Notes: generated by a model not told the origin, from the letters alone. A DNA stretch of 64,000 nucleotides from Alphaproteobacteria bacterium (GCA_965248835.1 CBDFLJ010000002.1:2432001-2496000), one strand, 5' to 3'; shown: positions 6,927 through 63,892, counted from the first letter of the stretch. Made by a program: numbers and translations.

Positions 6927-7223
6927 ATGCTGTTTCTGATCGTCAATATCGACAAGCCGGGCCGCAACGACCTGCGGCTGGCCAACCGGCCGGCGCAGCA
7001 CGACTACATCGAGCGCTTTCGCGAACGCATAAAGTTCGCCGGCCCGACCACCACCGAGGACGGCGGCATGTCGACCGGCAACATGTTCGTTTTCGAGGCC
7101 GACAGCTATGACGAGGTGCTCGCGTTCACCCGGGGCGACCCCTATCTCAAGGCCGGGCTGTTCGACACCACCCTGATCCGGCCGTGGAACTGGACCTTCA
7201 ACCGGCCCGGCCTGGATATCTAG
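6927..7223 (+). CDS. YciI family protein
   Basis: DKPG..LR...R, AGP and DPY..AGLF motifs; RBS. Confidence 0.85.
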   Translation: MLFLIVNIDKPGRNDLRLANRPAQHDYIERFRERIKFAGPTTTEDGGMSTGNMFVFEADSYDEVLAFTRGDPYLKAGLFDTTLIRPWNWTFNRPGLDI

Positions 7224-7241
7224 AGTGCGTCCGGAACGGCC

Positions 7242-7649: not shown

Positions 7650-7719
7650 TCCTTCCCCCTGGTGACGGGCCGCGGTGTGGCAGGCGAACAATAGACCGGA
7701 ACCGTGGAGACCTGCAGCC

Positions 7720-8499: not shown

Positions 8500-8518
8500 G
8501 CCCGCCGGCGGCCGCCCG

Positions 8519-9541: not shown

Positions 9542-9765
9542 CGGCCTGATCCTTCCTATGTGCGGCAGAGCGGGCGGTGCTCCGGCGGTCTTCCGAATCT
9601 AAAGCCTAAACCCCGCCGGTTTTCAACCAATTCAACCAATTCAGCCGACGAACCGACCCTTGCCCGGACGGCCCACCGGGACGCCGCGCCGGCTGGCCCG
9701 CCTGCCGCCGAAATTGCTATCCTGTGCCGCGATCATACCGGAAAAGCGACAAGAGGGCGGGACAG

Positions 9766-11397
9766 ATGGCCGAGGGCTCGGTGAAATACGACTACGTGAT
9801 CGTCGGCGCCGGCTCGGCCGGCTGCGTGCTCGCCAACCGGCTGAGCGCCAGCGGCGCGAGCGTCCTGGTGCTCGAGGCCGGCGGACCCGACAAGAGCTGG
9901 CTGATCCATGTCCCGCTCGGCGTCGGCAAGGTCTGGCATTCGCCGGACTTCAACTGGTCATACACCTCCGATCCCGAGCCCAATCTCGACGGCAGGGAGA
10001 TATTCCATCCGCGCGGCAAGGTCCTCGGCGGATCGTCCTCGATCAACATGATGGCCTATGTCCGCGGTCACCGCGGCGACTTCGATCGCTGGCGCCAGAA
10101 GGGGCTTGACGGCTGGTCCTACGCGGACGTGCTGCCCTATTTCCGCCGCGCGGAGAGCTTCGAGGACCCGACCAACCCGTTCCACGGCACCGACGGACCG
10201 CTAAGCATCGAGACCAGCAGGATCGACGACCCGCTGATCGACGCCTTTCTCGAAGCGGCGGTCACGGCGGGCTACGAGACGACCCCGGACTATAACGGCG
10301 CCAGGCAGGAGGGCTTTGCCAGGCTGCAGAGCAACATCAGGAACGGCAAGCGCTGCAGCGCCGCGGTGGCCTACCTCCATCCCGCGGTCGCCGGCGGCCG
10401 GGTGCGGGTGGAGACCGGCGCGCTGGCGACCGGTGTGGTGCTCGAGGGCGGCCGGGCCACCGGCGTGCGCTACATCAAGAACGGACGCGGCCAGACGGCA
10501 AGCGCGGGGACGGAAGTGATCCTCTCCGGCGGGGCGATCAACTCGCCCCAGATCCTGATGCTCTCGGGCATCGGGCCGGCCGGGCATCTGGCCGAGCACG
10601 GCATCGAGACCACGCTCGACCGCCAGGGCGTCGGCGGCAACCTGCAGGATCACCCGGCGATCGGAGCCGAGTACGGCTATGCCGTCCCCTCGCGCTTCCA
10701 CCGCACGCTGCGGCTCGACCGGCTGGCGTTCAACATGATCCGCGCCCATCTGTTCGGCACCGGCCCGGCGGCGGTCGCACCGTCAGCGGCGACCGCCTTC
10801 GTGCGCAGCCGGCCGGAGATCGAACTGCCCGACATCCAGCTCTTCTTCCGGCCGGCCTCCTACAATGCGCGGGAATGGTTCCCCGTCCTCATGCCGCCGA
10901 CACCGGAGATCTTCGCCTTCCGCGCCTGCCACCTGCGCCCCGAAAGCCGCGGGACGATCCGGCTCCGCTCGGCCGACCCGACGGCCAAGGTGCGCATCCG
11001 CAACGATTTCCTGTCGACCGAGACCGACCGGCGCGCGCTCAGGGACGCCGTCCGCCTGATTCGGACGCTCGCCTTCCAGCCGGCATTGGAGCCCTACCGA
11101 GGCCCGGAGTGCCTCCCCGGCGCCGCGGTCGAGACCGACGATCAGATCGATGAATTCGTGCGCCAGAACCTCAGCACGGTCTACCACCCGATCGGCACCT
11201 GCCGGATGGGGAACGACGAGGACTCGATCGTCGATCCGGAACTCCGGGTCCGAGGCATCGACAATTTGCGGGTGGTCGATGCCTCGGTGATGCCCGATCT
11301 CGTCGGCGGCAATATCAACGCGGTGGTGATCATGATCGCCGAGAAGGCCGCCGACGCCATCCTCGGCAACCCGCCGCTGCCCCGGGCCGAGGTCTGA
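9766..11397 (+). CDS. GMC family oxidoreductase (choline dehydrogenase-like)
   Basis: [33 protein letters not shown] and VVDAS motifs. Confidence 0.93.
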
Positions 11398-49036: not shown

Positions 49037-50164
49037 CTAACGGGCGGCCATCGGCACCACCGCGCGCTGGTCGGCGCCGTCATAGGCGCTAAGCGGGCGG
49101 ATCAGCTTGTTCGCCGCGTTCTGCTCCAGGTAATGGGCGGCCCAGCCGGTGATCCGGCTCATCACGAAGATCGGCGTGAACATGTCGATGTCGAAGCCCA
49201 TCAGATAGTAGGCCGGGCCGGCCGGAAAATCGAGGTTGGGGTGGATGCCCTTCTCCTCGATCATCACCTTCGCCAGCCCATCCGCCATACGGGTCCAGGT
49301 ATCGTCACCCTTCCAGGCTGCGAGGTCTTCGAGGCACTTGCGCATCGTCGGCACGCGGGAATCGCCCGACTTGTAGACCCGGTGGCCGAAACCCATCACC
49401 AGCCGTTTGCCGGCGATCGCATCGCGCATCCACTGCTCGGCGGTCTCCGGATCGCCGATCTCCAGCATCATGTGCATCACCGCCTCGTTTGCCCCGCCAT
49501 GCAGCGGGCCCTTGAGCGAGCCGATGCCGCCGGTGATGGCCGAATAGATGTCCGACCGCGACGAGGCGATCACCCGCACGGTGAACGTTGAGGCGTTGAA
49601 GCTGTGCTCGGCATAGAGGATCAGCGAGGTGTCGAAGGCCTTGACCGCCTCGGGCGGCGGCACCGCGCCGAAGCACATGTTGAAGAAGTTCTCGGCCATG
49701 CTCAGTTCGGCGCGCGGGGCGATGCGTTCGAGCCCTTTGCGGAACCGGTAGTCGGTGGCGATCATCGTGGGGATCTTCGCGAGCATGTCCATCGCCCGGG
49801 AAAGGTCGGAATCGGCCGGCTCGCCGCCCCAGGCGGTCTCGGTTGTGCCGAGGTAGCTCACCGCGGTGCGGATCGTATCCATCGGGTGCGCATCCCGGGG
49901 GAAGCGCCCGATCACCGCGACATGGTCCTCGGAGATCTCCCGCCGGCCCGCCTCGTCGCGTTTGAAGGACGCGAGCTGTTCCGCATTCGGCAGCGCGCCG
50001 TGCCACAACAGGTAGGCCACCTCCTCGAACGAGCACGCCGCGCACAAATCCTGGACCGCATAGCCGCGATAGGCGAGCGAATTGGTCTCCGGCATCACCT
50101 TGGAGACGGCGGTGGTGTCGACGACCACGCCGTCGAGGCCCTTCTGGATCTCCGGTTGAGACAT
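49037..50164 (-). CDS. prpC: 2-methylcitrate synthase
   Basis: YAEHSFNASTF, GPLHGGANE, MGFGHRVY and PNLDF motifs; operon context. Confidence 0.93.
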   Translation of the reverse strand: MSQPEIQKGLDGVVVDTTAVSKVMPETNSLAYRGYAVQDLCAACSFEEVAYLLWHGALPNAEQLASFKRDEAGRREISEDHVAVIGRFPRDAHPMDTIRTAVSYLGTTETAWGGEPADSDLSRAMDMLAKIPTMIATDYRFRKGLERIAPRAELSMAENFFNMCFGAVPPPEAVKAFDTSLILYAEHSFNASTFTVRVIASSRSDIYSAITGGIGSLKGPLHGGANEAVMHMMLEIGDPETAEQWMRDAIAGKRLVMGFGHRVYKSGDSRVPTMRKCLEDLAAWKGDDTWTRMADGLAKVMIEEKGIHPNLDFPAGPAYYLMGFDIDMFTPIFVMSRITGWAAHYLEQNAANKLIRPLSAYDGADQRAVVPMAAR

Positions 50165-50167
50165 GCG

Positions 50168-51061
50168 CTAGACCTTGAAGTTGTAGAGGCTTTGGTCGAA
50201 GTGATTGTAATCCTCGTAGCGGACTACGCCATAAAGCTCCTTGCGGGTCTGCATGCGCTCCAGCAGCGAGGCCTGGGTCCCTTCGGCCGCCAGCGTCGCA
50301 AGCCCCTGCGCGACCCCGAACATCGCCAGCCTCAGCGTGGTGACGGGGTAGATCGCGATGTTGTAGCCGAGCGAGACCAGCTCGTCCCTGGTGAGCAGCG
50401 GCGTCTTGCCGAACTCGGTCAGGTTCGCCAGCAGCGGCACGTCGAATTCCTTGCGGAAGGCCTCGTATTCGACGTGCGTTGTCAGCGCTTCGGGAAAGAT
50501 CGCGTCCGCACCGGCATCGACATAGGCCTTGGACCGCTCGATCGCCGCCGACAGGCCTTCGGAAGCCTTCGAATCGGTTCGCGCCATCAGCAGGAAGTTG
50601 GGGTCGCGCCTGGCGTCGGCGGCGGCGCGGATCTTCCGGACCATCTCCTCGGTCGGGATGAGCGCCTTGTTGTCGAGATGACCGCAGCGCTTGGGGCTGA
50701 GCTGGTCCTCGATATGGCAGCCGGCGAGGCCGGCGGCCTCGATCTCCTGGACCGTGCGGGCGGCGTTCATCGCCTCGCCGAAGCCGGTATCGATGTCGAT
50801 GATCGCCGGCAGGTCGCTGACCCGGGCGATCTGCCGGCCCCGGAGAGCGACCTCGGGCAGCGTCGTCAGCCCGATGTCGGGCAGACCCAGATCGGCCGAC
50901 AGCGCCGCACCGGAGATATAGATGCCGTCGAAGCCATGCTCCTGGACCATCAGCGCGACCAGCGGCGAGAATGCGCCGGGCATCTGGAGCAGGCGGCCCG
51001 AGGCGAGCGCGGCGCGGAACGCGGCGCGTTTGTCCTCCGGTGTCTTCTTGGCAAACAGCAT
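50168..51061 (-). CDS. prpB: Methylisocitrate lyase
   Basis: YISGA, DIDTGFG, IEDQ..PKRCGH and ARTD motifs. Confidence 0.94.
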   Translation of the reverse strand: MLFAKKTPEDKRAAFRAALASGRLLQMPGAFSPLVALMVQEHGFDGIYISGAALSADLGLPDIGLTTLPEVALRGRQIARVSDLPAIIDIDTGFGEAMNAARTVQEIEAAGLAGCHIEDQLSPKRCGHLDNKALIPTEEMVRKIRAAADARRDPNFLLMARTDSKASEGLSAAIERSKAYVDAGADAIFPEALTTHVEYEAFRKEFDVPLLANLTEFGKTPLLTRDELVSLGYNIAIYPVTTLRLAMFGVAQGLATLAAEGTQASLLERMQTRKELYGVVRYEDYNHFDQSLYNFKV

Positions 51062-52569
51062 CAGAAGATCCCCCTGTCGTCGCGCTCCGCGTTGGCGAGC
51101 CCGGCCGGATCGACGGCGACGTTGAGTCCGCCCAGCGAAGCGGCGTCGAGATCGGGCAGTTGCTGGACCAGGTCGAGGAAGCGGCGCTGCTCGGCTTGCG
51201 TGACGATCCCGTCGGCCAGGGTCTCGAACTTGCCGACATAGTCGGCGCGCGCGAACGGCCGGGCACCGGCGGAATGGGCGTTCGCCCGGGCAAGCTCGTC
51301 GGTGATCGTCTCGCCGGTCGCCAGAAGGATCTCGATCCGGCCGCCGAAGGCCCGCCGATTCGGGTCGGGCTCGTGATAGCGCTGCGTCCAGGCGGGATCT
51401 TCGACGGTTTCGATCTTGTGCCACAGACGGACCGTATCCGCGCGCGCCGCGCGCTCGGGCGCGTAGGAACGGAGGTGATGCCATTCCCCGTCCTGGAGCG
51501 CGACCGCCAGGATGTACATGATGCTGTGGTCCAGCGTCTCGCGGCTTGCAGCCGGGTCCATCTTCTGCGGATCGCCCGCGCCGGTCCCGATCACGTAATG
51601 GGTGTGGTGGCTGGTGTGGAGCGTGATGCGCTCGACCGAATCGAAGTCGGCGATGCGCGCGCGCATCCGGAAGGCGAGGTCGACGATCGCCTGGCTCTGG
51701 TATTCGGCCGAATGCTCCTTGGTATAGGACTCCAGGATTGCCCGCTTGGGCTCGCCCGGGGCCGGCAGCGGCACCGTGTAATCGGCGTCCGGCCCGTCGA
51801 GCACCCTGGCGATCACGCTGTCCTCGCCCTCGTAGATCGGCGACGGCGCGCCCTCGCCCCGCATCGCGCGGTCGACCGCCTCGATGGCGAGCTTGCCGGC
51901 GTGCGCTGGTGCGAACGCCTTCCAGCTCGAGATCTCGCCCTTGCGCGACTGGCGGGTGGAGACCGTCACGTGCAGCGCCTGCTGGACGGCCTGGTAAACC
52001 CGCTCGGCCGGCAGGCCGAGCAGCGTGCCGATCCCCGCCGCCGCCGAAGGGCCGAGATGGGCGATGTGGTCGATTTTGTGGGCGTGCAGGCAGATGCCCT
52101 TGACCAGATCGATCTGGATCTCGTAGCCGGTCGCGATCCCGCGCACCAGGTCGCGCCCGCCACGACCGGTCTGCTGGGCGACCGCCAGGATCGGCGGGAT
52201 GTTGTCGCCGGGATGGGAATAGTCCGCGGCCAGGAAGGTGTCGTGGTAGTCGAGCTCGCGCACGGCGGTGCCGTTGGCCCAGGCCGCCCATTCGGCGGCG
52301 AACCGGCGCTCGCCAGCGATGCCGAAGACCGTCGCCCCGCCGTCCCGCGGATGGGCCACGGCCTGGGCGCGGGCCGCGGCGACCGGCGCGCGGTCGAGCG
52401 CGGCGACGGCGACCGCGGCGTTGTCGATGATCCGGTTGACGATCATCTCCTCGACCGCGGGCTCGACGTCGACCGGATCGGCCGCAACCGCGGCGATCTT
52501 CCAGGCGAGCTGATCCTCTCGTTCTAATGCATGTTTGGAAGGATAAACTCTAACCTTATGATTAATCAT
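51061..52569 (-). CDS. prpD: 2-methylcitrate dehydratase
   Basis: [21 protein letters not shown] and ISSWK motifs. Confidence 0.93.
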
Positions 52570-52683: not shown

Positions 52684-53328
52684 ATGACGCCGAGCCATGT
52701 TCTTCGCCTGACGATCGACCGCCTGGCTCCGGGCGCGGCGATGACGGCGCCGCTGCCGGCGGCAATCCGGGCGTGCCATGTCGCCGAGGGCATGGCCTGG
52801 TTGCGCACCGGCGATGTTGCGGGCGCGCTGTCCGCCAACGCCGCCCTGTTCTCGACCGGCGGCCTCGAGGTGGAAGCCGGCAAGGACGGGGCGGTGATCC
52901 TGCGTTACGAGCTCCATCGCGCGGATGCCGCCGGCGCCGGCGCGCCGGTCCTGGAGGCCGGGCTCACGCTCGAGGATCCGGACGGCTATCTGTTGCGCTG
53001 CGACATGGTCGCTCTGCCGCCGGGCGGCATCGCCTATACCCACACCCATCAGGGCGGCGGGATCAGGTGCCTGCTGGAGGGCGGCTTCAACGTCGAGGTT
53101 GCCGGCAAGACCACCGCCATCGGCCCGCTGGAGGCCTGGTTCGAGGCCGGCCCCGACCCGGTCTACGCCCATGCACCCGAAGACAGGCCCGGCCGGTTCA
53201 GCCGGGTGATGATCCTGCCCCGCCGGCTCAAGGGCAAGAGCTCGATCCGCTATGTGAACCCCGAGGATGCGGACAAGCCGAAGCTTCAGACATACACGGT
53301 CTTTCTGGACGAGTTTATCGAGACATGA
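52684..53328 (+). CDS. Cupin-fold hypothetical protein
   Basis: HTHQG.GIR.LLEG and AWFE.GP.PV motifs; ATGA overlap with the next gene. Confidence 0.7.
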   Translation: MTPSHVLRLTIDRLAPGAAMTAPLPAAIRACHVAEGMAWLRTGDVAGALSANAALFSTGGLEVEAGKDGAVILRYELHRADAAGAGAPVLEAGLTLEDPDGYLLRCDMVALPPGGIAYTHTHQGGGIRCLLEGGFNVEVAGKTTAIGPLEAWFEAGPDPVYAHAPEDRPGRFSRVMILPRRLKGKSSIRYVNPEDADKPKLQTYTVFLDEFIET

Positions 53329-54995
53329 GCACCAATCTCAGGACCGGCGGCCAGATCCTGGTCGATGCGCTGCGCACCCACGATGTCGATACGATCTATT
53401 GCGTGCCGGGCGAGAGCTATATCGCCACGCTCGACGCCCTGTTCGATGCCCGCGATGCGATCCGCGTCGTGACCTGCCGCCAGGAGGGCGGGGCAGCGAA
53501 CATGGCCGATGCCTACGGCAAGATGACCGGCCGGCCCGGCGTCTGTTTCGTCACGCGCGGGCCGGGTGCGACGAACGCCAGCGTCGGCATCCATACCGCC
53601 CGCCAGGACTCCACGCCGCTGGTGCTGTTCATCGGCCAGGTCGCGCGGCCGATGGCAGAGCGCGAGGCGTTCCAGGAGATCGACTTCCGCCGCATGTTCG
53701 GCGAGATGACCAAGTGGACCGCCCAGATCGACGACCCGGGACGGATCCCCGAATACGTCAACCGCGCCTTCCGTACCGCGGTCTCCGGCCGGCCGGGCCC
53801 GGTCGCGCTCGCTCTGCCCGAGGACATGCAGACCGAGCGCGCCCAGGCCGAAGACGGGGCACGCTATCAGGAGGTCCAGGCCCATCCCGATCCCGCGGAT
53901 GTCGCCCGCTTGGCCGTGATGCTGGGCGAGGCCCGGCGCCCGCTGGTGCTGGTCGGCGGCGCCGGCTGGACCCAGGCCGCCTATGACGACCTGCATGCGT
54001 TTGCCGAGGCCAACGACCTGCCGGTGGCTGCGGCGTTCCGGCGCCAGGACCATTTCGACAACCGGCACCGGTGCTATGTCGGCATGGTCGGGCTCGGTCT
54101 CAACCCGCATCTCGCCGAACTGATCAAGGGCGCCGACCTGTTGATCGTCCTCGGCGCGCAGTTGGGCGAGATCATCACCCAGGGCTACACGCTGTTCGCC
54201 ATGCCCCGGCCGCGCCAGCGCCTGGTCCACGTCAGCGCCGGCGTCGCCGAGCTCGGCAAGGTCTATCAGCCCGAGCTTGCGATCAATTCCGGGATGCCGG
54301 CGATTGCCGCCGCCCTGCGCGCGCTTCCGGTCGTGGCCGAGCGGCCCTGGGCCGGGCTCAGAGCCGAAGCACGGGCCGCCTATGAAGATTTCAGCGCGCC
54401 CACGGATTCACCGGGCTCGCTCAACCTCGCCGCGGTGGTGCGCATGCTGGAAGGGCTGCTGCCCGAAGACGCGATCATCGCCAACGGCGCGGGAAACTTT
54501 TCGGTCTGGCTGCACCGGTTTCACCGCTACCGCGGCTTCCGCACCCAGCTCGCCCCACAGTCCGGGGCGATGGGCTACGGCGTGCCCGCCGGCGTCGCGG
54601 CGGCGATCCGCCACCCCGACCGCCAGGTGGTCTCCTGGTCGGGCGACGGCTGCTTCCTGATGAACGGCCAGGAGGTCTCGACCGCGGCCGCGAACCAGTG
54701 TCGAAATCTCGTCTTCCTGGTAGTCAACAACGGGACCTACGGCACCATCCGCATGCACCAGGAACGCCATTATCCGGAACGGGTGATCGCCACCGACCTC
54801 GCCAACCCCGACTTCGCGGCGCTCGCGCGCGCCTACGGCCTGCATGGCGAGACGGTCACCCGTACGGAAGAGTTCGAGGCGGCCTACGCGCGTGCGCGCG
54901 CGGCCGGAACCGCCTCCCTGATCGACCTTGTCGTCGATCCCGACGTGATCCTGCCGACGACAACGATTAGCGAGATTCGCCAGGCCGCGCGCTAA
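53325..54995 (+). CDS. Thiamine pyrophosphate-binding protein (acetolactate synthase-like)
   Basis: VPGESY, RQEGGA, TRGPG, GAMGYG and GDG...NN motifs. Confidence 0.92.
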   Translation: MSTNLRTGGQILVDALRTHDVDTIYCVPGESYIATLDALFDARDAIRVVTCRQEGGAANMADAYGKMTGRPGVCFVTRGPGATNASVGIHTARQDSTPLVLFIGQVARPMAEREAFQEIDFRRMFGEMTKWTAQIDDPGRIPEYVNRAFRTAVSGRPGPVALALPEDMQTERAQAEDGARYQEVQAHPDPADVARLAVMLGEARRPLVLVGGAGWTQAAYDDLHAFAEANDLPVAAAFRRQDHFDNRHRCYVGMVGLGLNPHLAELIKGADLLIVLGAQLGEIITQGYTLFAMPRPRQRLVHVSAGVAELGKVYQPELAINSGMPAIAAALRALPVVAERPWAGLRAEARAAYEDFSAPTDSPGSLNLAAVVRMLEGLLPEDAIIANGAGNFSVWLHRFHRYRGFRTQLAPQSGAMGYGVPAGVAAAIRHPDRQVVSWSGDGCFLMNGQEVSTAAANQCRNLVFLVVNNGTYGTIRMHQERHYPERVIATDLANPDFAALARAYGLHGETVTRTEEFEAAYARARAAGTASLIDLVVDPDVILPTTTISEIRQAAR

Positions 54996-55053
54996 CGCGG
55001 CGACCGACGGCGGCGGTGCCGGCGTGGGCCGGCGCCGATATTCGGTCAACGGA

Positions 55054-55887
55054 TCACTTTGAGAGCAGCGCGTTCATCTCCGGATGGAGGACCACACCCT
55101 CGGTGAAACCATAGGTCCCGGTATCCTTGAGCTCGCCGGCGATCCGGCGGGCAAGGGTGGCGAAGGCGAGCGACATCAGGCCGCCGATGCTCACCCGGGC
55201 GACCCCGAGCCCGGCCAGCACCGGGATCGGCGGCGAGACGCCGCTCGCCAGGACGTTGAGCGGTCCGTCGATCTCCTCGCACAGGGTGGAGATCGTCTCT
55301 GCATCCCGCGCGAAGGGCACGAACAGGCAATCCGCGCCGGCCGCGCGGTAGGCGTTGGCGCGCTCGATCGCCTCCGTGACGGCCTCGGGCCCCGTGCCGC
55401 CCTTGAGTAAGACATCGGTGCGCGCGTTGATCACCACGGGCACGCGCGCGGAATCGGCCGCTTCCCGGCCGGCGGCAATGCGCTCCGCCGCGAGCGTGCG
55501 GTCGATCAGCTTGGCTTCGCCCTCGAAGGCGCCGTCCTCGATGTTGAGCCCGACGGCGCCCGCCTCGATGGTCTCCCACACGGTCTGGGCGACCGCTTCG
55601 GGTGCGGTGCCGTAGCCCGCCTCCATATCGGCGGTGACCGGGACGTCGAGCGCACCGGCAATCCGGCGGACCATGGACAGCATTTCCTCACGCGAGATCA
55701 TCTGGCCGTCCGGATAACCCAGCAACCAGGCGACGCCGGCGCTGGACGTCGCGACCGCCCGGAAGCCGGCCTCGACGACAATCTTGGCCGAGCCGACGTC
55801 CGAAGCATTGGCAAGGACGAGGATCTCGCGGCCGTCATGCATGGCCTTGAAGGCAAGGGCCTTGTCGATCTGGTCCTGATTGGCCAT
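55054..55887 (-). CDS. Isocitrate lyase/PEP mutase family protein
   Basis: ATSSAG, D.EAGYG, NIEDG, NARTD and AGAD motifs; lacks the KxCGH loop. Confidence 0.9.
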   Translation of the reverse strand: MANQDQIDKALAFKAMHDGREILVLANASDVGSAKIVVEAGFRAVATSSAGVAWLLGYPDGQMISREEMLSMVRRIAGALDVPVTADMEAGYGTAPEAVAQTVWETIEAGAVGLNIEDGAFEGEAKLIDRTLAAERIAAGREAADSARVPVVINARTDVLLKGGTGPEAVTEAIERANAYRAAGADCLFVPFARDAETISTLCEEIDGPLNVLASGVSPPIPVLAGLGVARVSIGGLMSLAFATLARRIAGELKDTGTYGFTEGVVLHPEMNALLSK

Positions 55888-55895
55888 CGGTCCCC

Positions 55896-57224
55896 CTAAA
55901 ACCCGATCTCGGGCACCGGCCCGCCGGCGGCCATGCCCAGCACGCCGTCGATGACGGGTTGCGGATCGGCGAGGCCGCCGAAGCGCAGCAGATCGCGGGC
56001 CTTTTCCGCCATTTCGGCCGCATCGAGGGCCGCTTCGGGATCACCCTTGCATTCCGGTTTCCTGGCGGCGACCCGCCTGCCGTCGGCAAGCCTCACCGAG
56101 ACCTCGCCGCCCCAGGACGCGGGGTAGGCCGACTGGTAGGGCTCGCCCGCACCGACCCGAACCTTTGCGCGCAGGCCGGCCAGGCGCGCACGCGCCGCCA
56201 CCTCGAAGGACTCGAAGGTGACCTTGCCGTCGGCCAGCGCTGCGGCAACGCAGTGCTGCAGCGAGAACTTCCCCTCATAGGGCGAGGTCGGCGCGGCCCG
56301 GTCGCACACATCGACCGCGGCCTGGTAGGTGAGCGCTTCGATGTCGGCGACCGCGCCCGCTTCGACCTTGCCCGACAGATCGAGCGCGGCATCGATCACC
56401 GGATGGGTGTGGCGGCAGGCCGGCCAGGGCTTGATCGAGACCGCATGGACCTGCCAGGGCGCGTCCGGGTGGCGCAGCACCGCGCCCGGGTCCGGGTCCG
56501 GGCAGGCGCCGGCATAGAGGCCTTGCGGACCCTCGAGGATCGCCGGCGGGCCGGTGAACCCCGCCTGGGCGAGCTCGGCCGCGACCAGCCCCGCCTCGGC
56601 GGCCCGGCCGGCATGGAGATGCTTGCTCATCGCGCCGGTGTTGAGGAACTCCCACAGCCCGGCGGACTGGGTGCCTGCGTTGCCCAGCGCATGGACGGTC
56701 GCCTCATCGTCGAGACCGAGGACGGTCGCTGCGCCCATCGCCGCGCCGAACGGCCCGCAGGTCGCGGTGTTGTGCCAGACCTTGTAATGGGCCTTGCCGA
56801 CCGACATGCCGACCCGGCAGACCGCCTCGAAGCCGAACAGCACCGCGCGCAGGAATTCTTCGCCCGTCACCCCGGTCCGTTGCGCCAGGGCAAGGACGGC
56901 CGGGATCACCACGCAGCCCGGATGGCTGACCGAACCGCGGTGCAGGTCGTCGACCTCCAGCACGTGCATGCAGCCGCCCATCACCAGCGCCCGGCGGCCG
57001 GCATCGCTCTGGCGGTGCGCGCCCCACGCCTGCAGGATCCGGCCCGGCTCGGTCTGCCGGCCGGCCAGCATGTTGGCGACGCCGTCGAGCGTCACCAGCG
57101 CCATCGCCTCGAGATCGGCCGCGGCGACCGGCTTGGCGCGGATCAGATCGACCAGCCCGGCGGTGAGCGAGCGCGCTCGGGGTGAGATCTCTTCGACGAA
57201 TCGCGCGCCGGAGGCGCTGGTCAT
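55896..57224 (-). CDS. MmgE/PrpD family protein
   Basis: H.LE.DD.H, HPG, HNTATCG, K.LHAG and KPWPACRHTH motifs. Confidence 0.9.
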   Translation of the reverse strand: MTSASGARFVEEISPRARSLTAGLVDLIRAKPVAAADLEAMALVTLDGVANMLAGRQTEPGRILQAWGAHRQSDAGRRALVMGGCMHVLEVDDLHRGSVSHPGCVVIPAVLALAQRTGVTGEEFLRAVLFGFEAVCRVGMSVGKAHYKVWHNTATCGPFGAAMGAATVLGLDDEATVHALGNAGTQSAGLWEFLNTGAMSKHLHAGRAAEAGLVAAELAQAGFTGPPAILEGPQGLYAGACPDPDPGAVLRHPDAPWQVHAVSIKPWPACRHTHPVIDAALDLSGKVEAGAVADIEALTYQAAVDVCDRAAPTSPYEGKFSLQHCVAAALADGKVTFESFEVAARARLAGLRAKVRVGAGEPYQSAYPASWGGEVSVRLADGRRVAARKPECKGDPEAALDAAEMAEKARDLLRFGGLADPQPVIDGVLGMAAGGPVPEIGF

Positions 57225-57236
57225 TGCCGATTCCTG

Positions 57237-58478
57237 TCAGGCCGCGCGGCTGGGCGGCGCGTAATCGGGGAAACGGTCCGAGACGTCCATGTTGAAGAAC
57301 TTGCGCGCGTTCTCGCCCAGGATGTTGCGCTTGGCGGTCTCGTCCAGGAACGGCAGGTCCCAGATCACCGAGGGCAGATCCATGTCCCAATGCGGGTAAT
57401 CCGAGCACCAGCAGAGCTGGGTCTCGGCCTTGATCATCTTGAAGGTCATCTCGAGGATATCGAGATCGTTGGGGACCTCCATCGGCTGGGAGGAATAGTA
57501 CATGTCCTGCATGTACTCGCTCGGCAGCTTCTTGAGCGACGGCGCTTCGGAGGAACGCATCCGGTAGTCGTTGTCCAGCCGCTGCATCAGCCACGGGACC
57601 CAGGCCAGGCCGGATTCGATCCACATCACCTTGAGCTTGGGGAAGCGCTCGGGCAGACCGTTGATCACCCAGTTCGCGCAATGCATGGCGTTGTAGATCG
57701 TAAAGCCCATCGCATGGGTGACCAGGAACCGGTTCGACGCCCCCAACAGCGGGTCGTTCCAGTTGTAGGAGGCGTGGAAGGCGAGCGGCTGGCCCATCTC
57801 CTCCATCAGGCGGTAGGTCTTCATGTAGGCGTTGTCGTAGACCGGCTTATAGCGGGTCGAGACGACGGAAAATCCGATCACGCCGTCCTTGTCGCCGAAG
57901 TCCTGGACCATCTTGTAGCTGGCATCGGGATCGTTGAACGGCAGATAGAGCATCGAGCGGATGCGCTTGTTCTGCGGCAGGATGTTCTCGACCAGCCAGC
58001 GGTTATAGGCCCGCGACATCTGGGCCTCGATCTCGGGCTGGGGGTGCAGGCCCAGGAGCAGCATCGGCGTGGGGAACATCGAGACGTAGTCCACGCCCAT
58101 CGACTCCATCCACTTGAGCGAGAGGTGGACATCGCGGTGGGTGCCATCGGCCGGCGTCTTCTCCAGCTTGCGCAAGGGATAGCGCATCACCCGGCCGGAG
58201 ACGTCCTGGTATCCCACCACGCCGGGGAGCAGCGGCGTCTGCGCGCCGGTCCCGGCGCCGCCGGTATAGGCGAGCCCGGTCTGCTTGATCACCGGGTCCT
58301 CGATATACTGGATGATGTCGCGCAGCGACTCGTTCTCGTAGTGGTGGCAGTCGACATCGATGATCAGCACGTCCTCCAGCCCGCGCTTGTCGCGCTGGCG
58401 GGCGGCGTTGATCAGCAGCTTCTCCGTATCGAAGCTCTCCACGGACATCTTGTGAATATCGCTTGTCGGAATATCCAT
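57237..58478 (-). CDS. Amidohydrolase_2-fold protein (candidate dinuclear oxygenase)
   Basis: IDVDCHHYE, FPT, AYNRW, FHA, IESG and SDYPHWD motifs. Confidence 0.88.
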   Translation of the reverse strand: MDIPTSDIHKMSVESFDTEKLLINAARQRDKRGLEDVLIIDVDCHHYENESLRDIIQYIEDPVIKQTGLAYTGGAGTGAQTPLLPGVVGYQDVSGRVMRYPLRKLEKTPADGTHRDVHLSLKWMESMGVDYVSMFPTPMLLLGLHPQPEIEAQMSRAYNRWLVENILPQNKRIRSMLYLPFNDPDASYKMVQDFGDKDGVIGFSVVSTRYKPVYDNAYMKTYRLMEEMGQPLAFHASYNWNDPLLGASNRFLVTHAMGFTIYNAMHCANWVINGLPERFPKLKVMWIESGLAWVPWLMQRLDNDYRMRSSEAPSLKKLPSEYMQDMYYSSQPMEVPNDLDILEMTFKMIKAETQLCWCSDYPHWDMDLPSVIWDLPFLDETAKRNILGENARKFFNMDVSDRFPDYAPPSRAA

Positions 58479-58491
58479 CGCTTGCTTCCCT

Positions 58492-58821
58492 TCAGGCGCC
58501 CGACCAGGCCTGCCACATGCCGAGCTCGAACAGCTCGACATTGACCGCCCGGAGCATTGCAGTGCACATGATCATGACCGCGGTTGCCGGCATCGCGCGG
58601 TCGTCGGTGAAGGGCGACCACCGCTCGCCGATCTGGAACTTGACGGTATAGAGCTTGGTCAGCGCGGTGAGGCCCTCCCGGATCAGCTCGTCCGGCGGCT
58701 CGGCCCCGTCATCGAGCGCCAGCAACTTCCGCGCGATTTCCTTCAGCGCCGCCGTCTCCTCGCCGACATCGGCCAGAAGATCGCCGACCTCTTCGGCATC
58801 CGGATCCTCAGGCGAGGACAT
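58492..58821 (-). CDS. Small hypothetical protein coupled to the Rieske gene
   Basis: 109 aa, GC3-rich, overlaps the Rieske stop; C-terminal MLRAVNVELFELGMWQ. Confidence 0.8.
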   Translation of the reverse strand: MSSPEDPDAEEVGDLLADVGEETAALKEIARKLLALDDGAEPPDELIREGLTALTKLYTVKFQIGERWSPFTDDRAMPATAVMIMCTAMLRAVNVELFELGMWQAWSGA

Positions 58822-59176
58822 AGATGCCGTCCTCTTTCTCGACGACGTCGTATTTCCTGAGCTTGAACGTCCTGTCCGCGACCATCACACCGGTCTCGAG
58901 ATCGTACTCCCACCCGTGCCACGGGCAGACGATATGCATCTCGTCGTGGTTGAACCGCATGCCCTGATAGGTCCGGTCATCGGCGATGACCTCCTCGACC
59001 TTGGCCATCAGCAGCCCCTCGCAGGCCGGCCCGCCCTGGTGCGCGCACAGGTTCTGGTAGGCATAGAGCTTGCCCTTGACGCGGTAGACGCCGATCTCGC
59101 TGCTGCCGTTGGGGACGATCTTGCGCTCCCCGTCGCCAATCTCCTCTGACTTGGCGATGAAGACTTCCTTTGCCAT
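58808..59176 (-). CDS. Rieske (2Fe-2S) ferredoxin
   Basis: CAHQGGP and CPWHGWEY motifs. Confidence 0.92.
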   Translation of the reverse strand: MAKEVFIAKSEEIGDGERKIVPNGSSEIGVYRVKGKLYAYQNLCAHQGGPACEGLLMAKVEEVIADDRTYQGMRFNHDEMHIVCPWHGWEYDLETGVMVADRTFKLRKYDVVEKEDGIYVLA

Positions 59177-59209
59177 GTACTCACTCTCCTGCGGGCCGGT
59201 TGTCGTTCC

Positions 59210-60052
59210 TCAATTGGTCGCCACCGACAGCGTCCGCGCCGCGGCGCCGCCCTGGTGCCGGTTCGCGCGGCTCTGCAGCCGGGTCATGCCGACATTGGCC
59301 AGCGCGGCCAGGGCGAAGATGATCAGGATGATCGCGTACATCTCCGCGATCCTGAACTGTTCGTAGTAGTTGCCCAGCCGGTATCCGAGCCCGCCGTCGG
59401 CGAACTTGAGCTCGGCGACGAGCACGCCGATCACGGTGATGGCCATACCGAGCCTGAGCCCGGTGATCACCGGGTTGACCATCGCCGGGATGTAGATCTT
59501 GGCCGCCATCTGCCAGCCGCTGAGATTGAAGCTCTTGCCCACGCGCAGCAGCACCGGGTTGATCAGGATCATGCCCAGCGCAGTCGAGAACACCACCGGG
59601 AAGAAGGCCGAAAGCGCCCCCTTGGCCATCTTGGAATCGATCCCGGTGCCGAAGATCAGGAACAGGATCGGCAGGAAGATGATCTTGGGCGTCGAGCCAA
59701 TCGCGTTCAGATAGGGCTCCAGCGCCTTGCGGAGCAGCGGGTTGACGCCCATCGAGATGCCGAGCGCGATGGCGATCGACGAGCCGACGATGAAGCCGAC
59801 GATATGCTCGGCGAAGGTGATGCCGAGGTCGCGGTAGAAGTCCGCAGCCGTCACCTCGTTCCACACCGCCAAGCCGATCTCCCACGACGATGGGATCACG
59901 TCGCCGTAGAGGACCTCCAAATTGCCGAGAAGCGCCAGCCCCTCCCAGGCGACCAGCAAGCCGACCACCGTGACGAGGCGGATGCGCCCGACCGACAGTT
60001 CGCGATCGGCTCCGGCCGCGGCGGTGCCGCGGATTACACCGGCCTGAGCCAT
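59210..60052 (-). CDS. ABC permease (NitT/TauT family)
   Basis: PKIIFLP, FFP and AE...GGLGY motifs. Confidence 0.9.
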   Translation of the reverse strand: MAQAGVIRGTAAAGADRELSVGRIRLVTVVGLLVAWEGLALLGNLEVLYGDVIPSSWEIGLAVWNEVTAADFYRDLGITFAEHIVGFIVGSSIAIALGISMGVNPLLRKALEPYLNAIGSTPKIIFLPILFLIFGTGIDSKMAKGALSAFFPVVFSTALGMILINPVLLRVGKSFNLSGWQMAAKIYIPAMVNPVITGLRLGMAITVIGVLVAELKFADGGLGYRLGNYYEQFRIAEMYAIILIIFALAALANVGMTRLQSRANRHQGGAAARTLSVATN

Positions 60053-60786
60053 TTCTCGATCCTCCCGAACCCCCAGTAGAAGATGACGCTCACCAGGATG
60101 ACGGCGATGATGCTGGCATAGGTGCCGGGCGTGTCGAAGCGGAAATACATCTCCGAGACGACCCGTCCCAGCCCGCCGAAGTCAATCAAATACTCGATCG
60201 CGACAATGTTGACGAGGGTGTACATCACCCCGATCCGGATGCCCGTGAAGATCGTCGGCACCGCCGCCGGCAACTGGATCTTCCAGAACATCTCGCGTTC
60301 GGAGACGTTGAAGCTGCGCCCGACATTGACCAGTGTGTCGGAGACCCCCAGCAATCCCTGCCGGGTCTGGATGATGATCGGGATGGAGCCCGGGATGAAC
60401 CCCATCATGATCAGCGTCAGGTGGGTGCGCCCGAAGATCACCAGGAACAGCGGATAGAGCAGCACCGTCGGCGCGGCGAAGGCGGCGGCGAGCCAGCCTT
60501 CGTAGGCGATGCCGAAGCGACGGTTGCGGTAGAGGAAGTAGCCGAACGGAATGCCGATCGCCAGGGCGATCGCCGTCGAGGCTGCGGTCATCCCGAGGGT
60601 CACCAGGAAGTTCCCGAACAGGTCCATCTCCTCCTGGACCGGCGGGAAGGCGAGGATCGCGTCGGACGGCCGCGGGACGACCAGCTCCATCACCCACCCG
60701 GCCGAGACGACCAGCTCCAGGGCCGCCACAAACGCGGCGACCCCGAGCAGGCCGACCAGGGCCGGCGATCGGGCAAGCGAGGTCAT
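60034..60786 (-). CDS. ABC permease (NitT/TauT family)
   Basis: LYPL, LPAAVPTIFTG.R and GGLG motifs. Confidence 0.9.
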   Translation of the reverse strand: MTSLARSPALVGLLGVAAFVAALELVVSAGWVMELVVPRPSDAILAFPPVQEEMDLFGNFLVTLGMTAASTAIALAIGIPFGYFLYRNRRFGIAYEGWLAAAFAAPTVLLYPLFLVIFGRTHLTLIMMGFIPGSIPIIIQTRQGLLGVSDTLVNVGRSFNVSEREMFWKIQLPAAVPTIFTGIRIGVMYTLVNIVAIEYLIDFGGLGRVVSEMYFRFDTPGTYASIIAVILVSVIFYWGFGRIEKWLRPV

Positions 60787-60812
60787 GGCCGGCCGGTCAC
60801 CGGCTCAGCGCC

Positions 60813-61778
60813 CTAGCTGGGCTTGTTGCCCATCGGATGGACCAGCTCGTGGAGCTGGGCCGGCGTCAGGAGCTTGTTGATGCGCTTGAACTTGAGCGCC
60901 ATTTCGTTGAGCTGCTGCATCTTGCCGAGCGGCAGGAAGGTCGCTTCGGTAAGAGGAATGAACTTGGGCGATTCCTTCACGTCCTCGTAATCGAGCTTCC
61001 AGCGCTTGGCGTAGGCACGTTGCTGCTTCTCGCTGGTATAGGTGATCTGCTGGCCTTCGACCATCGCCGCCATCATGCGCTGGGCGGTACCGCGGTTCTT
61101 GTCCAGCCAGTTGGAATTGGCCGCGATCACGCGGATCGTCACGCCGTTGAGCCCGGCCGCCAGGGTGCCGGTGCCGATCACCCGGATTTTCTTCTCACGC
61201 AGCAGGTTGCCGTTGAGCGGGAAGACCGACCAGCCGGACGCGACCTGGCCCGACATGACCTGGGTGCGCGAGCCCGACGGCCCGCCGACCGAGACCAGCT
61301 TGGCCGACAGATTGAGCGCATCCTTGAGGAACAGCGCCGTCAAATGGGTGGTCGAACCGGGACGGGAGTAGACCAGCTCCTTGCCGCCGTTGAGGTCCTG
61401 GAAGCTCTTGATCGGGCTGTCGGACTTGACATACCAGTAGAGGTCGCCGGTGCCCCGCTTGGTCGAGCCCAGGATGCGCACCGGCGCGCCCTTGGCGTAG
61501 GCCGCAATCACCGACAGCACGCCGACGCCGAAGCCCATGTCCTGGCTCGCGGTCATGATGGTCTGCAAGGTCGCCGCGCCGCCCGAGCCGAAGATGACAT
61601 CGACATCGAGGCCCATGCGGTCGAAGACGCCGTTTTCCTTGGCCGAAAAGACGTGCTCCATCTCGAAGACGACCTTGGTGCTGTTGATGAACCGCACCTT
61701 GTCGGCCGCAGCGGCCGGTCCGGCCGCCAGCACGGAAACGGCACCGGCAACCAGCAGCGATTTCATTGCCCTTGACAT
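60813..61778 (-). CDS. ABC substrate-binding protein (NitT/TauT family)
   Basis: Signal peptide; G.F...GLDV, SPIKS..DL and SRPGSTT motifs; GGAGG RBS. Confidence 0.88.
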   Translation of the reverse strand: MSRAMKSLLVAGAVSVLAAGPAAAADKVRFINSTKVVFEMEHVFSAKENGVFDRMGLDVDVIFGSGGAATLQTIMTASQDMGFGVGVLSVIAAYAKGAPVRILGSTKRGTGDLYWYVKSDSPIKSFQDLNGGKELVYSRPGSTTHLTALFLKDALNLSAKLVSVGGPSGSRTQVMSGQVASGWSVFPLNGNLLREKKIRVIGTGTLAAGLNGVTIRVIAANSNWLDKNRGTAQRMMAAMVEGQQITYTSEKQQRAYAKRWKLDYEDVKESPKFIPLTEATFLPLGKMQQLNEMALKFKRINKLLTPAQLHELVHPMGNKPS

Positions 61779-61855
61779 CCTTGCCTCCAATTTCGTTGGC
61801 TCTGTCGGTTCTCGATCGATGGTACGCGTGATTTCGGTCGCCGTCGATGCCCCGC

Positions 61856-62662
61856 TCAGCGGGCCGCCAGCGCCGCCTCGGCCTCGATCATGCCGCGCGA
61901 GGCCTCCTCGCGCAGCAGCGACCAGAGCTGGCCGACATAATGGCCGAACTCCGGCGTCGAGATCACTTCCGAGGAGCGCGGCCGCGGCAGGTCGATGGTG
62001 ATCTGCTCCTTGATGCGGCCCGGCCTGAAGGACATCACCACCACGCGGTCGGAGAGCTGGACCGCCTCGGTGATGTTGTGAGTGATCAGCAGCATGGTCT
62101 GGTTGAGCGCCGCCCATATCTCCAGCATCTTGTCGCCCAGGAGCATCCGGGTCTGCTCATCGAGCGCGCCGAACGGCTCGTCCATCAGCATGATCCGCGG
62201 CTCGTAGGCCAGCGTGCGCGCCACCGCGGTGCGCTGCTTCATGCCGCCCGAGAGCTGCGCCGGATAGTGGTTCTCGAAGCCCTCCAGCCCGACCAGCCGG
62301 ACGAAATTCCGGGCGCGTTCCTCGCGCTCGGGCTTGGCCATGCCCTGGACCTCCAGCGAGAACGCGACGTTGTCGAGCGTGGTCCGCCACGGGAAGGTCG
62401 ATTCCTCCTGGAAGACCACGCCGACGTCGCGGTGCGCGCCATCGACCGGATGGCCGTCGATAAGGACCGAGCCCTCGTGGCCGGCGATCAGCCCGCCGAC
62501 GATGTTGAACAACGTCGACTTGCCGCACCCGCTGGGCCCGATCACCGAGACGAACGCGCCCTCGGCAACGTTGAGCGTCACGCCGTCCAGCGCCTTGACC
62601 GGGTTCTCCCCGTCCGGGTCATAGGTCTTCGAGACCCCGGCGATTTCCAGGATATCGCCCAT
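61856..62662 (-). CDS. ABC ATP-binding protein (NitT/TauT family)
   Basis: GPSGCGKST, LSGGMKQR and MDEPFGALD motifs. Confidence 0.94.
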   Translation of the reverse strand: MGDILEIAGVSKTYDPDGENPVKALDGVTLNVAEGAFVSVIGPSGCGKSTLFNIVGGLIAGHEGSVLIDGHPVDGAHRDVGVVFQEESTFPWRTTLDNVAFSLEVQGMAKPEREERARNFVRLVGLEGFENHYPAQLSGGMKQRTAVARTLAYEPRIMLMDEPFGALDEQTRMLLGDKMLEIWAALNQTMLLITHNITEAVQLSDRVVVMSFRPGRIKEQITIDLPRPRSSEVISTPEFGHYVGQLWSLLREEASRGMIEAEAALAAR

Positions 62663-62815
62663 CCGTCTCCATCCGTGCTCGTTGCCGCGCCTTGGGTGCC
62701 GGGCCTTCCTCGCGCCGGCGGGCACTGCGTGGGATCATAGTCCCGCGCGGCGCCCGCCGGTGTCAACCGAGACGGCTCTTGCGCGCGGCGCAACAGCATG
62801 CCGAGAGGGACCGCG

Positions 62816-63892
62816 ATGGCCGAAAATTTCCTGACCACCCACGAGATCGTGCAGGCTGCACGGAGCCGCGCCAGCCAGCCGGTGTGGAACTACATCACCG
62901 GCGCGGCGGAGACCGAGACCACCATGCGGCGGAACCGCCATGGGCTCGACCGCATCGCGTTCCGGCCGCGGGTGCTGCGCGACGTCTCCACGATCGATCC
63001 CTCGGCGACGCTGCTGGGCCACCGGCTGCGCATCCCGGTGCTGCTGGCGCCGATCGGCTCTCTCCAGTCGATCACCGAGGACGGCGGTGTCGCCGTCGCC
63101 AAGGCCGCTGCCGCGTTCGGCACCATCAACATGGTCAGCACCGTCACCCAACCCAGCCTCGAAGAGATCGCGGCGGCGACCACAACCCCGAAGATCTTTC
63201 AGATCTATATCCGCGGCGATGACGGGTGGATCCGCGATCTGATCGACCGCGCGAAGGCGGCCGGCTATGCCGCGCTCGCACTGACCGTGGACTCCGCCTA
63301 TTACGGCCGGCGCGAGCGCCAGCTCCTCTCCCGCTGGCTGCCGCCGTCGGTGCGCACCCAGACCGGCCGGGAATGGCAGACCATGATCACCTGGGAGACG
63401 ATGGCGATGATGAAGGAGCACGGCGGCCTGCCCTTCATCCTCAAGGGCATCCAGACGGCCGAGGACGCGGTGCTCGCGCTCGAGCACGGGGTGGACATGA
63501 TCTACGTCTCCAACCACGGCGGCCGCCAGCTCGACCACGGTCAGGGCGCCATCGACATCCTGCGCGAGGTGGCCGACGCCGTCGAAGGCCGCGTCCCGGT
63601 GCTGGTCGATTCCGGCTTCATGCGCGGCACCGACATCCTCAAGGCGCTGGCGATGGGCGCAAGCGCGGTCGCCATCGGCCGCCTCCAGGCCTGGGCGCTG
63701 GCGGCCGGCGGCGCGCCGGCGCTGGTCCGCGCGCTGGAGATCCTCGAAGCCGAGATGACCAACGCCATGGGCCTGATCGGCGTGACAGCCCTCGACCAGC
63801 TCGGTCCGACCTATCTTGCCCAGGCGCCCTCGGTCACCGCCGCCCACGAACTCGGCGCGCTGCCCTTCCTGGACGACGCGTTCCGCCTGTAG
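62816..63892 (+). CDS. FMN-dependent alpha-hydroxy acid oxidase
   Basis: RPRVLRDV, LTVD, LKGI and SNHGGRQLD motifs. Confidence 0.94.
   Translation: MAENFLTTHEIVQAARSRASQPVWNYITGAAETETTMRRNRHGLDRIAFRPRVLRDVSTIDPSATLLGHRLRIPVLLAPIGSLQSITEDGGVAVAKAAAAFGTINMVSTVTQPSLEEIAAATTTPKIFQIYIRGDDGWIRDLIDRAKAAGYAALALTVDSAYYGRRERQLLSRWLPPSVRTQTGREWQTMITWETMAMMKEHGGLPFILKGIQTAEDAVLALEHGVDMIYVSNHGGRQLDHGQGAIDILREVADAVEGRVPVLVDSGFMRGTDILKALAMGASAVAIGRLQAWALAAGGAPALVRALEILEAEMTNAMGLIGVTALDQLGPTYLAQAPSVTAAHELGALPFLDDAFRL

Follow-up and report, generated by a model that had tools for sequence, protein, structure and literature searches.

We characterized an operon in a 64,000-nucleotide stretch of DNA from an Alphaproteobacteria bacterium (GCA_965248835.1, CBDFLJ010000002.1:2432001-2496000), the whole of which is called the window here. 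Nine closely packed minus-strand genes at 55054-62662 make up one operon according to an open reading frame (ORF) and family scan. Together they probably encode an importer, a Rieske [2Fe-2S] ferredoxin, a conserved 109-residue protein (the small protein) and an amidohydrolase-related dinuclear oxygenase (ARO) that would use O2 to hydroxylate the organic anion taken up; the small protein is a likely third component. In motifs and predicted fold the enzyme belongs to the already published ARO class, a young superfamily in which only a handful of members have a known reaction, and the evidence given below supports the prediction that it inserts oxygen with electrons from the adjacent Rieske protein. 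The published three-component picture of hydroxylase, Rieske ferredoxin and reductase lacks the conserved third gene seen here. This gene is the mark of a well-delimited clade, in which the small protein forms at least 887 sequence clusters. The minus-strand gene set that had been named from the DNA alone, in what we call the sequence-only reading, was recovered in a Pfam scan, every gene being present with its expected family; family calls for the operon proteins are based on Pfam and NCBIfam model scans.

The amidohydrolase-fold enzyme and its predicted metal ligands

AROs were defined by Liu et al. (JACS 2024, PMC10811679), having been discovered via PF04909 genes beside small Rieske genes. 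According to the accessible text of a second study (Liu et al., JACS 2026, PMC13154177), the superfamily has been widened to about 17,000 sequences and is defined by an N-terminal D-x-H and a C-terminal D-x-P-H-x-D/E motif, the latter sitting behind about 200 or more residues; D-x-H and D-x-P-H-x-D are described there as missing from characterized hydrolases and decarboxylases of the amidohydrolase fold. The operon gene at 57237-58478 (-) encodes a 413-residue predicted member of this superfamily that carries both motifs on the PF04909 (Amidohydro_2) TIM-barrel fold (E 2.2e-18), with ARO structures as its best fold matches. Its D43-C44-H45 lies within a predicted strand (40-45), the first beta strand, and aligns with the DVH of 8SM7 and SfbO in a PDB sequence search, and its C-terminal motif reads D360-Y-P-H363-W-D365. 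Among 28 orthologues, D360, Y361, P362, H363, W364 and D365 are invariant, as are H45 and H235; D43 and E288 reach at least 90% conservation. H235 and E288 align with the His of ...vH.ga and the Glu of ..E.G. in 8SM7 and SfbO, and by this alignment only they are predicted to be the remaining site 1 ligands, the mid-barrel His and the bridging Glu. The residues quoted in the sequence-only reading are all in place under corrected numbering (DCH at 43-45, H235, E288 and SDYPHWD at 359-365), and the C-terminal metal motif recurs in 84 of 86 AROs encoded downstream of a Rieske-small pair.

Sequence and fold searches gave the same ranking. The PDB sequence search returned 8SM7 (E 1.2e-38, over residues 35-398), SfbO 8SM6 (5.5e-29) and AibH2 (5.8e-25), together with 8SM9 and 8SM8, and more weakly PtmU3 (1e-14) and decarboxylases including ACMSD (about 4e-8 or weaker). 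An AlphaFold2 model (predicted local distance difference test score, pLDDT, 76.5; predicted template-modelling score, pTM, 0.83) superposes best on AROs: in a Foldseek search against the PDB, all 15 of the best-ranked rows listed (ranks 1-17) were AROs, at target-normalised template-modelling (TM) scores of 0.73-0.80, and decarboxylases ranked below them. An ordinary non-redox hydrolase or decarboxylase with an unrelated Rieske neighbour would also give PF04909 as the sole family match, and databases do label the relatives amidohydrolases; that explanation is nonetheless very improbable, given two motifs that the accessible text of PMC13154177 reports as absent from characterized hydrolases and decarboxylases of the fold, a Rieske linkage kept in 78 of 80 loci, and AROs standing above decarboxylases in sequence and fold searches alike.

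The sequence-only reading had taken the protein for an O2-dependent hydroxylase, and as far as sequence data reach this stood, on both ARO motifs, on solved AROs scoring far above decarboxylases and on the Rieske linkage. Two of the checks it had proposed, structure prediction with superposition and a survey of gene neighbourhoods, came out in its favour, with the best superposition on AROs and linkage of the Rieske and small genes kept in 78 of 80 loci, and none of the contrary outcomes that it had named and that could be looked for here, such as the lack of conserved linkage, was found. The novelty it implied for the enzyme type fell away: the superfamily, its discovery through Rieske neighbours and homomeric members are already published (PMC10811679, PMC13154177). 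A single amidohydrolase-fold subunit is likewise not new, since four copies of a single subunit type make up the SfbO homotetramer (accessible text of PMC13154177).

Comparison with known systems places the operon closest to low-potential, Rieske-associated AROs. SfbO/SfbR from Litorilinea aerophila (8SM6/8SMA) resembles it in having a single-type-subunit ARO with D-x-H and D-x-P-H-W-D and a neighbouring small Rieske ferredoxin whose CPWHGW holds the conserved Trp, and SfbO matches the operon enzyme at a TM score of 0.79 (target-normalised). The operon ARO differs in being about 60 residues longer, mostly at 62-115, in lacking the sulfonate arginines of SfbO, and in having Cys/Phe instead of Val/Thr at the gamma1/gamma2 positions discussed below; it also has a small third gene, of which the accessible texts of PMC10811679 and PMC13154177 make no mention for SfbO. 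The nearest solved relative, D3EI84 of 'Geobacillus' sp. Y412MC10 (8SM7), comes from a different phylum, is about 26% identical by structural alignment and has Val at gamma1 and Thr at gamma2. AibH1H2-AibG-AibF, the 2-aminoisobutyrate hydroxylase of Rhodococcus wratislaviensis (6M1W, 8FUL), resembles the predicted operon enzyme in being a dinuclear hydroxylase (Mn/Fe in Aib) of the amidohydrolase fold that receives electrons from a Rieske ferredoxin. Its cluster, however, has two different ARO-fold subunits, an FNR-type reductase and, in the cluster table, no small protein, whereas the operon has one ARO, no reductase and a small gene, so that it is not of the heteromeric AibH1H2 type. PtmU3 (6OMP), a diiron high-potential ARO, shares the fold and motif class but is far more distant (Foldseek rank 33). 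In the accessible text of PMC13154177, high-potential AROs such as PtmU3 are largely without Rieske neighbours, and the last motif residue of PtmU3 is Glu.

According to the accessible text of the same paper (PMC13154177), Mn use is predicted by a hydrophobic gamma1, a hydrophilic gamma2 and an aromatic gamma4, and diiron by the opposite pattern, with Phe or Tyr at gamma2 counted as diiron-type. In the operon enzyme gamma1, the x of D-x-H, is Cys44, and this position holds Cys in 60, Ser in 13 and Ala in 10 of the 86 AROs downstream of a Rieske-small pair (unread in 3). Cys at gamma1 is presumably borderline on the hydrophobicity scale of the metal rule. Gamma2 is Phe135, invariant among the 28 orthologues and located at the end of a predicted strand (131-135), where it aligns with SfbO T108, the only Thr of that strand, and with 8SM7 T86; it is not the hydrophilic residue expected for Mn. 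Gamma4 is the equally invariant, aromatic Trp364, with the Rieske gene two genes upstream, in agreement with Mn use, and gamma5 is Met366. Because this signature is mixed, the published Mn/Fe rule does not classify the clade, and the combination of a gamma2 Phe with a gamma4 Trp, which puts it outside the Mn-versus-Fe distinction, makes it a useful test case. The Rieske neighbour and the closeness to low-potential AROs would lean towards Mn/Fe.

The small gene and its Rieske neighbour

The conserved 109-residue protein of no known family is encoded at 58492-58821 (-), between the Rieske and ARO genes. The small ORF is a real gene, as shown by its third-position differences and its large family. 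Differences at the third codon position exceeded those at each other position in all 13 comparisons with relatives (11, 7 and 32 differences at positions 1, 2 and 3 in one example, locus L003). A word-indexed search gave 162 proteins of 90-134 residues at E<=0.01 from 179 candidates, and a profile search of 1.84 billion representatives gave 887 clusters at E<=0.001, 466 of them at E<=1e-10. The small protein had no match in Pfam, NCBIfam, the PDB (sequence and profile searches) or the ESM Atlas, a profile comparison with the ARO itself gave nothing, none of the family members found contained a Pfam domain, and distant clusters are annotated only as 'hypothetical protein'. Apart from their neighbourhood figures, neither the accessible text of PMC13154177 names a small, accessory or hypothetical companion of AROs, or a PrpD protein, nor the accessible supporting-information text of PMC10811679 mentions a hypothetical protein. 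A full-text search of the accessible literature gave no other paper on AROs than those cited here.

Conservation is concentrated in the C-terminal 30 residues, which are near-invariant to the last residue (...T.VM....ML.AVN.ELFELGMWQ(A/S)WSG); the variable N-terminus is predicted to be disordered. The predicted model is helical (pLDDT 73.8); its best Foldseek match in the PDB had an E of 0.6, and the best Z in a wide VIA-align search was 6.0, to generic helical hairpins and below the stated helical noise level. No conserved Cys/His set for a cofactor was found in the family. Longer family members have added tails rich in Lys, Ala and Pro. Five of them (P0300, P0324, P0344, P0347 and P0357) carry N-terminal extensions of 80-120 residues of such Lys/Ala/Pro-rich, histone-H1-like low complexity before a core of about 70 residues, and in P0323 the middle helix region is duplicated.

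To follow the small gene across genomes, one genome per species was scanned for the small protein with two peptide patterns, and 182 genomes were positive, an undercount since FELGMWQS variants fall outside the two patterns. Carriers are nearly all Alphaproteobacteria, a few being labelled only Pseudomonadota or proteobacterium, and include Defluviicoccus and other Rhodospirillales metagenome-assembled genomes, the marine UBA830 and UBA2964 lineages, and Pseudolabrys with other Hyphomicrobiales. Of the 80 loci kept from these genomes for linkage counts, 78 have the Rieske gene immediately upstream in the same orientation, both exceptions being contig ends, and an ARO gene is present in all 80, downstream everywhere except in L026, whose sole ARO is upstream. 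In the window operon the small gene (from its ATG) and the Rieske gene (to its stop) share 14 nucleotides; the identical overlap was found in 57 of 73 automatic gene models, and some overlap in 68 of 73. With an overlap conserved to this degree, translation of the small gene would be linked to that of the ferredoxin gene, and the two may well be translationally coupled.

A second sample approached the linkage from the Rieske side. Searching 401 genomes of the class with a Rieske profile, among them G000, the genome that holds the window, yielded 26 loci in 16 genomes. Close Rieske orthologues (E<=1e-31) occur at 15 of these loci, two of them in G000; each is directly followed by a small ORF, and in 14 of the 15 a close ARO gene stands alongside. 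The other 11 loci have distant Rieske genes beside distant AROs, and all lack the small ORF; several of them show two ARO-profile matches side by side. In a phylum sample, the small protein occurred in one of 400 other genomes. The small gene is clade-specific and patchy.

Gene copies, proposed electron delivery and the possible role of the small protein

The Rieske ferredoxin (58808-59176, -; 122 residues; PF00355, E 5.3e-14) is preceded by an AGGAGAG ribosome-binding site, and its C44-x-H46, C84-x-x-H87 and W86 are invariant among the 28 orthologues. In the proposed mechanism, a reductase encoded elsewhere would pass electrons to this ferredoxin and from there to the ARO, whose two-metal site (Mn/Fe or Fe2) would be reduced by the Rieske protein and then react with O2. 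The small protein would most likely dock on the electron-delivery side, where it would either connect the Rieske protein with several AROs, as an adaptor or effector, or assist the Rieske protein itself, because its gene keeps to the Rieske gene whatever the number of AROs.

This last point is clearest in G000, which has eight close ARO paralogues (47-100% identity), two Rieske genes and two small genes of this type. Both Rieske/small sets form triads, one in the window operon and one at C2:560040-561944. The six other ARO paralogues (47-64% identity), at C2:2514316-2515533, C1:1908459-1909601, C1:838493-839650, C2:2165667-2166854, C1:177569-178759 and C2:438959-440128, have no Rieske or small gene beside them, and their neighbourhoods differ: TRAP/TTT transporters; a LeuCD-like aconitase with PhyH; UbiD with a cupin, a thiamine-diphosphate (ThDP) enzyme and a PrpD-like protein; a P450 with a molybdopterin oxidoreductase; and an SDR with UbiD. 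Only one PF04909 gene lies within the operon, and the nearest ARO paralogue is about 24 kb away. In the second triad (8035-9954 in locus L093), the ARO is 52% and the Rieske protein 48% identical to those of the window; it stands behind a pyridoxal-phosphate-dependent (PALP) gene, with an enolase-superfamily gene and a xanthine-dehydrogenase-type molybdenum enzyme nearby.

ARO genes also multiply next to a single Rieske-small pair. The marine Rhodospirillales loci L017, L041 and L047 (about 6100-10600) have the order TauD-like, ARO2, Rieske, small, ARO1, followed in L041 by PrpD-like and PEPM-like genes after ARO1, and the UBA830-like loci L023, L030, L031, L033, L034 and L042 carry a tandem ARO duplicate behind ARO1. 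In a FastTree phylogeny of 90 AROs, from which two thirds of the closely related downstream AROs of L001-L064 and rows shorter than 340 residues had been dropped, 22 of 24 upstream AROs group together with local support 100, in a clade sister to the one that contains the ARO of the window; the C-terminal metal motif is kept in 23 of the 24. Thus, the small gene tracks Rieske gene number and not ARO number, and one electron-delivery pair of Rieske and small protein may serve several hydroxylases. As a side observation, L017 and L041 have two divergent FMN_dh genes and a xanthine-dehydrogenase-type enzyme upstream.

A more far-reaching and rather uncertain possibility is that a large clade of Rieske-fed AROs has the 109-residue protein as its obligatory third subunit, a cofactor-less adaptor or effector that would be produced in step with the ferredoxin and would gate electron delivery from one Rieske protein to several different AROs, eight in this genome. 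If so, it would be the first effector-type component for amidohydrolase-fold oxygenases, with an origin independent of the MmoB-type effectors, and if it were needed for activity, in-vitro work with ARO and Rieske protein alone might fail or mislead.

Other roles would explain part of the same evidence. The small protein might be a dedicated helper of the Rieske protein, acting in cluster insertion, O2 stabilisation or docking to a housekeeping reductase and never touching the ARO. The overlap of its gene with the Rieske stop in 57 of 73 loci, its copy number (two, equal to the Rieske genes, versus eight ARO genes), the single Rieske-small pair in loci with two AROs and the lack of a reductase gene in the operon all fit such a helper. 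However, the distant Rieske ferredoxins beside AibH-like AROs do without a small protein, and since it is absent from all 11 of those loci it is no general need of ARO-linked Rieske proteins; together with the missing Cys/His set for a cofactor, this makes the helper somewhat unlikely.

A second possibility is an effector or coupling subunit bound to the ARO itself, which would gate O2 activation or electron entry in the manner of MmoB, DmpM and T4moD. These are small cofactor-less effector or coupling proteins of oxygenase operons, one of which, toluene 4-monooxygenase (T4MO), also uses a Rieske ferredoxin, and some multicomponent monooxygenase operons place the effector gene between the ferredoxin and hydroxylase genes. 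The small protein is in the same size class, its gene holds the same position, and its near-invariant C-terminal 30 residues suggest a docking surface. Yet it is without sequence or fold likeness to any solved protein, so that the parallel to MmoB, DmpM and T4moD is one of analogy, and their hydroxylase partners are four-helix bundles, in contrast to the TIM barrel of the ARO. As six of the eight ARO paralogues of G000 also do without an adjoining small gene, we regard an effector confined to the ARO as possible but doubtful.

Several observations count against our reading of the operon as an importer-fed ARO hydroxylase with the small protein on its electron-delivery side. No FNR-type reductase gene was found in the operon or the 64-kb window, and the three FNR-type matches in the genome are all far from the operon. 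The gamma signature is mixed, Cys44 being borderline, Phe135 of the diiron type and Trp364 of the Mn type as judged from the sequence. D3EI84 (8SM7), the nearest solved relative, is an orphan low-potential, Rieske-associated ARO with no known substrate (PMC10811679). The importer is not constant either: among loci L001-L064, whose ARO is orthologous to that of the window, and counting those with enough flank, its four genes are found, depending on the gene, in 33 to 37 of 55 to 61 loci, and the others have TRAP/TAXI or TTT transporters. Finally, the mirror-tree partial r of the small protein, a measure confounded by shared descent, is 0.23 for the Rieske protein as against 0.54 for the ARO and points to no one partner; the higher value would at most weakly favour an effector on the ARO over a Rieske helper. 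A complex prediction of ARO, Rieske and small protein scored 0.00 but, made without controls, is uninformative on binding either way.

Importer, downstream genes and substrate

The importer consists of an ABC (ATP-binding cassette) transporter ATP-binding subunit of NitT/TauT type (61856-62662, -; PF00005, E 3.9e-30), a periplasmic NMT1/SsuA-like substrate-binding protein with a signal peptide (60813-61778, -; PF09084 NMT1, E 1.7e-16) and two permeases, at 60034-60786 (-; PF00528 BPD_transp_1, E 2.1e-23) and 59210-60052 (-; PF00528 BPD_transp_1, E 1.4e-20). The ATPase has its best NCBIfam matches among taurine-, nitrate- and sulfonate-type families, all far under their cut-offs, the binding protein reaches 51 bits against a cut-off of 163 for TIGR01728 (SsuA_fam), and a PDB search gave no close solved relative of the binding protein. 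The names SaoA/SaoP/SaoX were rejected for the importer: they belong, as far as the accessible description goes, to a selenoprotein-linked transporter, and the scores are far under the cut-offs.

Downstream of the ARO, after a gap of 12 nucleotides, follows an MmgE/PrpD-family gene of the IDS-epimerase / cis-aconitate-decarboxylase (CAD) branch (55896-57224, -; PF03972 and PF19305), and 8 nucleotides further on a gene of the phosphoenolpyruvate (PEP)-mutase/isocitrate-lyase (ICL) superfamily, a likely C-C lyase (PEPM-like; 55054-55887, -; PF13714, E 1e-78). The nearest solved relatives of the first protein are IDS-epimerase (E 6e-42) and the B. subtilis IRG1, a cis-aconitate-decarboxylase homologue (1e-36). 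It was considered and rejected as the 2-methylcitrate dehydratase PrpD, with 35 bits against a cut-off of 950 for NF042438 and solved PrpD at only 2e-6. The second is nearest to function-unknown members (2ZE3, E 1e-48), methylisocitrate lyases lying at about 2e-17, and with 92 bits against a cut-off of 354 for TIGR02317 it was likewise not taken for the methylisocitrate lyase PrpB. Flanking the operon are a divergent flavin-mononucleotide (FMN)-dependent 2-hydroxyacid oxidase/dehydrogenase (62798-63892, +; PF01070, E 1.2e-107) in the L-lactate/glycolate oxidase family, a family also found divergent upstream in L016, L017 and L041, and a convergent ThDP enzyme (53328-54995, +; NF006052 PRK08199, 839 bits against a cut-off of 539), whose true start is slightly upstream of the matched region. 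All 50 orthologous loci with enough flank carry the PrpD-like gene; the PEPM-like gene occurs in 43 of 48 and a relative of the ThDP enzyme in 34 of 47 such loci; a more distant Hyphomicrobiales clade has none of these pathway genes (PrpD-like in 0 of 10), and MarR, TctC, NMT1 and once TauE instead.

Families of the PrpD/IDS-epimerase and PEPM/ICL types act on substituted succinates or malates, and since both are encoded here our best guess for the substrate is a carboxylate. In such a pathway the ARO would hydroxylate a C-H bond of an imported small carboxylate-rich or sulfonate anion, the hydroxy acid would be epimerised, isomerised or rearranged by the IDS-epimerase/CAD-like protein, and the ICL/PEP-mutase-type lyase would then cleave the product into a 2-oxo acid and a shorter acid. 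The FMN 2-hydroxyacid dehydrogenase and the ThDP enzyme may take up 2-hydroxy and 2-oxo acid products or side products, and the products would feed central metabolism, perhaps as propionate, at which the neighbouring prpDBC genes hint. The conserved pathway and the dedicated importer narrow the substrate search to small, carboxylate-rich anions, and the binding protein offers a direct handle on the ligand.

The main rival to a carboxylate is a sulfonate, taurine-like, tauropine-like or an N-alkyl-aminoethanesulfonate, on which the ARO would, like SfbO, act by oxidative N- or C-dealkylation. In favour of a sulfonate are the TauABC/SsuABC type of the importer, the TauD-family genes beside the module in marine relatives, a TauE/SafE sulfite-exporter gene (L074 7726-8589, -) placed divergently and directly upstream of the Rieske gene in a Pseudolabrys relative, and the activity of SfbO on aminoethanesulfonates (PMC10811679). 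We still consider a sulfonate unlikely for this operon: R232 and R235, which hold the sulfonate in SfbO, align with A256 and F259, the conserved partners (IDS-epimerase/CAD-like, ICL/PEPM-like and 2-hydroxyacid dehydrogenase) come from carboxylate-acting families, and the importer scores are far under every family cut-off. For the more distant module clade, the L074 TauE/SafE gene is a separate hint at sulfonate use.

Genuine prp genes lie beyond the ThDP gene at 49037-52569 (-) and form a canonical methylcitrate-cycle set: prpD at 51061-52569 (-), prpB as the C-terminal part of the ORF at 50168-52291 (TIGR02317, 420 bits) and prpC at 49037-50164 (NF010636, 597 bits). Near the module of L041, a marine locus of 44% guanine plus cytosine (GC), there is a PrpD-family gene of 503 residues, and L047 has an ORF of 502 residues in the same relative position.

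Gene starts were revised in two places. The ARO gene most likely starts at 58478 (MDIPTS..., behind GAAGGGAAG), which replaced 58541 on the strength of an N-terminus conserved among relatives, and the start of the binding protein was moved from 62117 to 61778, at MSRAMKSLLVAGAVSVLAAGPAAAA, where it has its signal peptide. The ATG of the ATPase (MGDILEIAG) agrees with the end coordinate, 62662, given in the sequence-only reading. A promoter and terminator scan of 54800-63000 gave counts no higher than in shuffles. A weak PF04909-type match to the ARO was seen at 5104-5700 (+) of the window (G000:C2:2437104-2437700; E 1e-9, 25% identity, residues 108-309). A 370-residue minus-strand ORF at 62735-63847 was rejected as a gene, having no family match and lying opposite the 364-residue FMN_dh gene. 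In this DNA of 66-70% GC, the longest ORF therefore sits on the wrong strand (62735-63847, - versus 62798-63892, +), and tblastn with this shadow ORF still gave 'conserved' matches in relatives.

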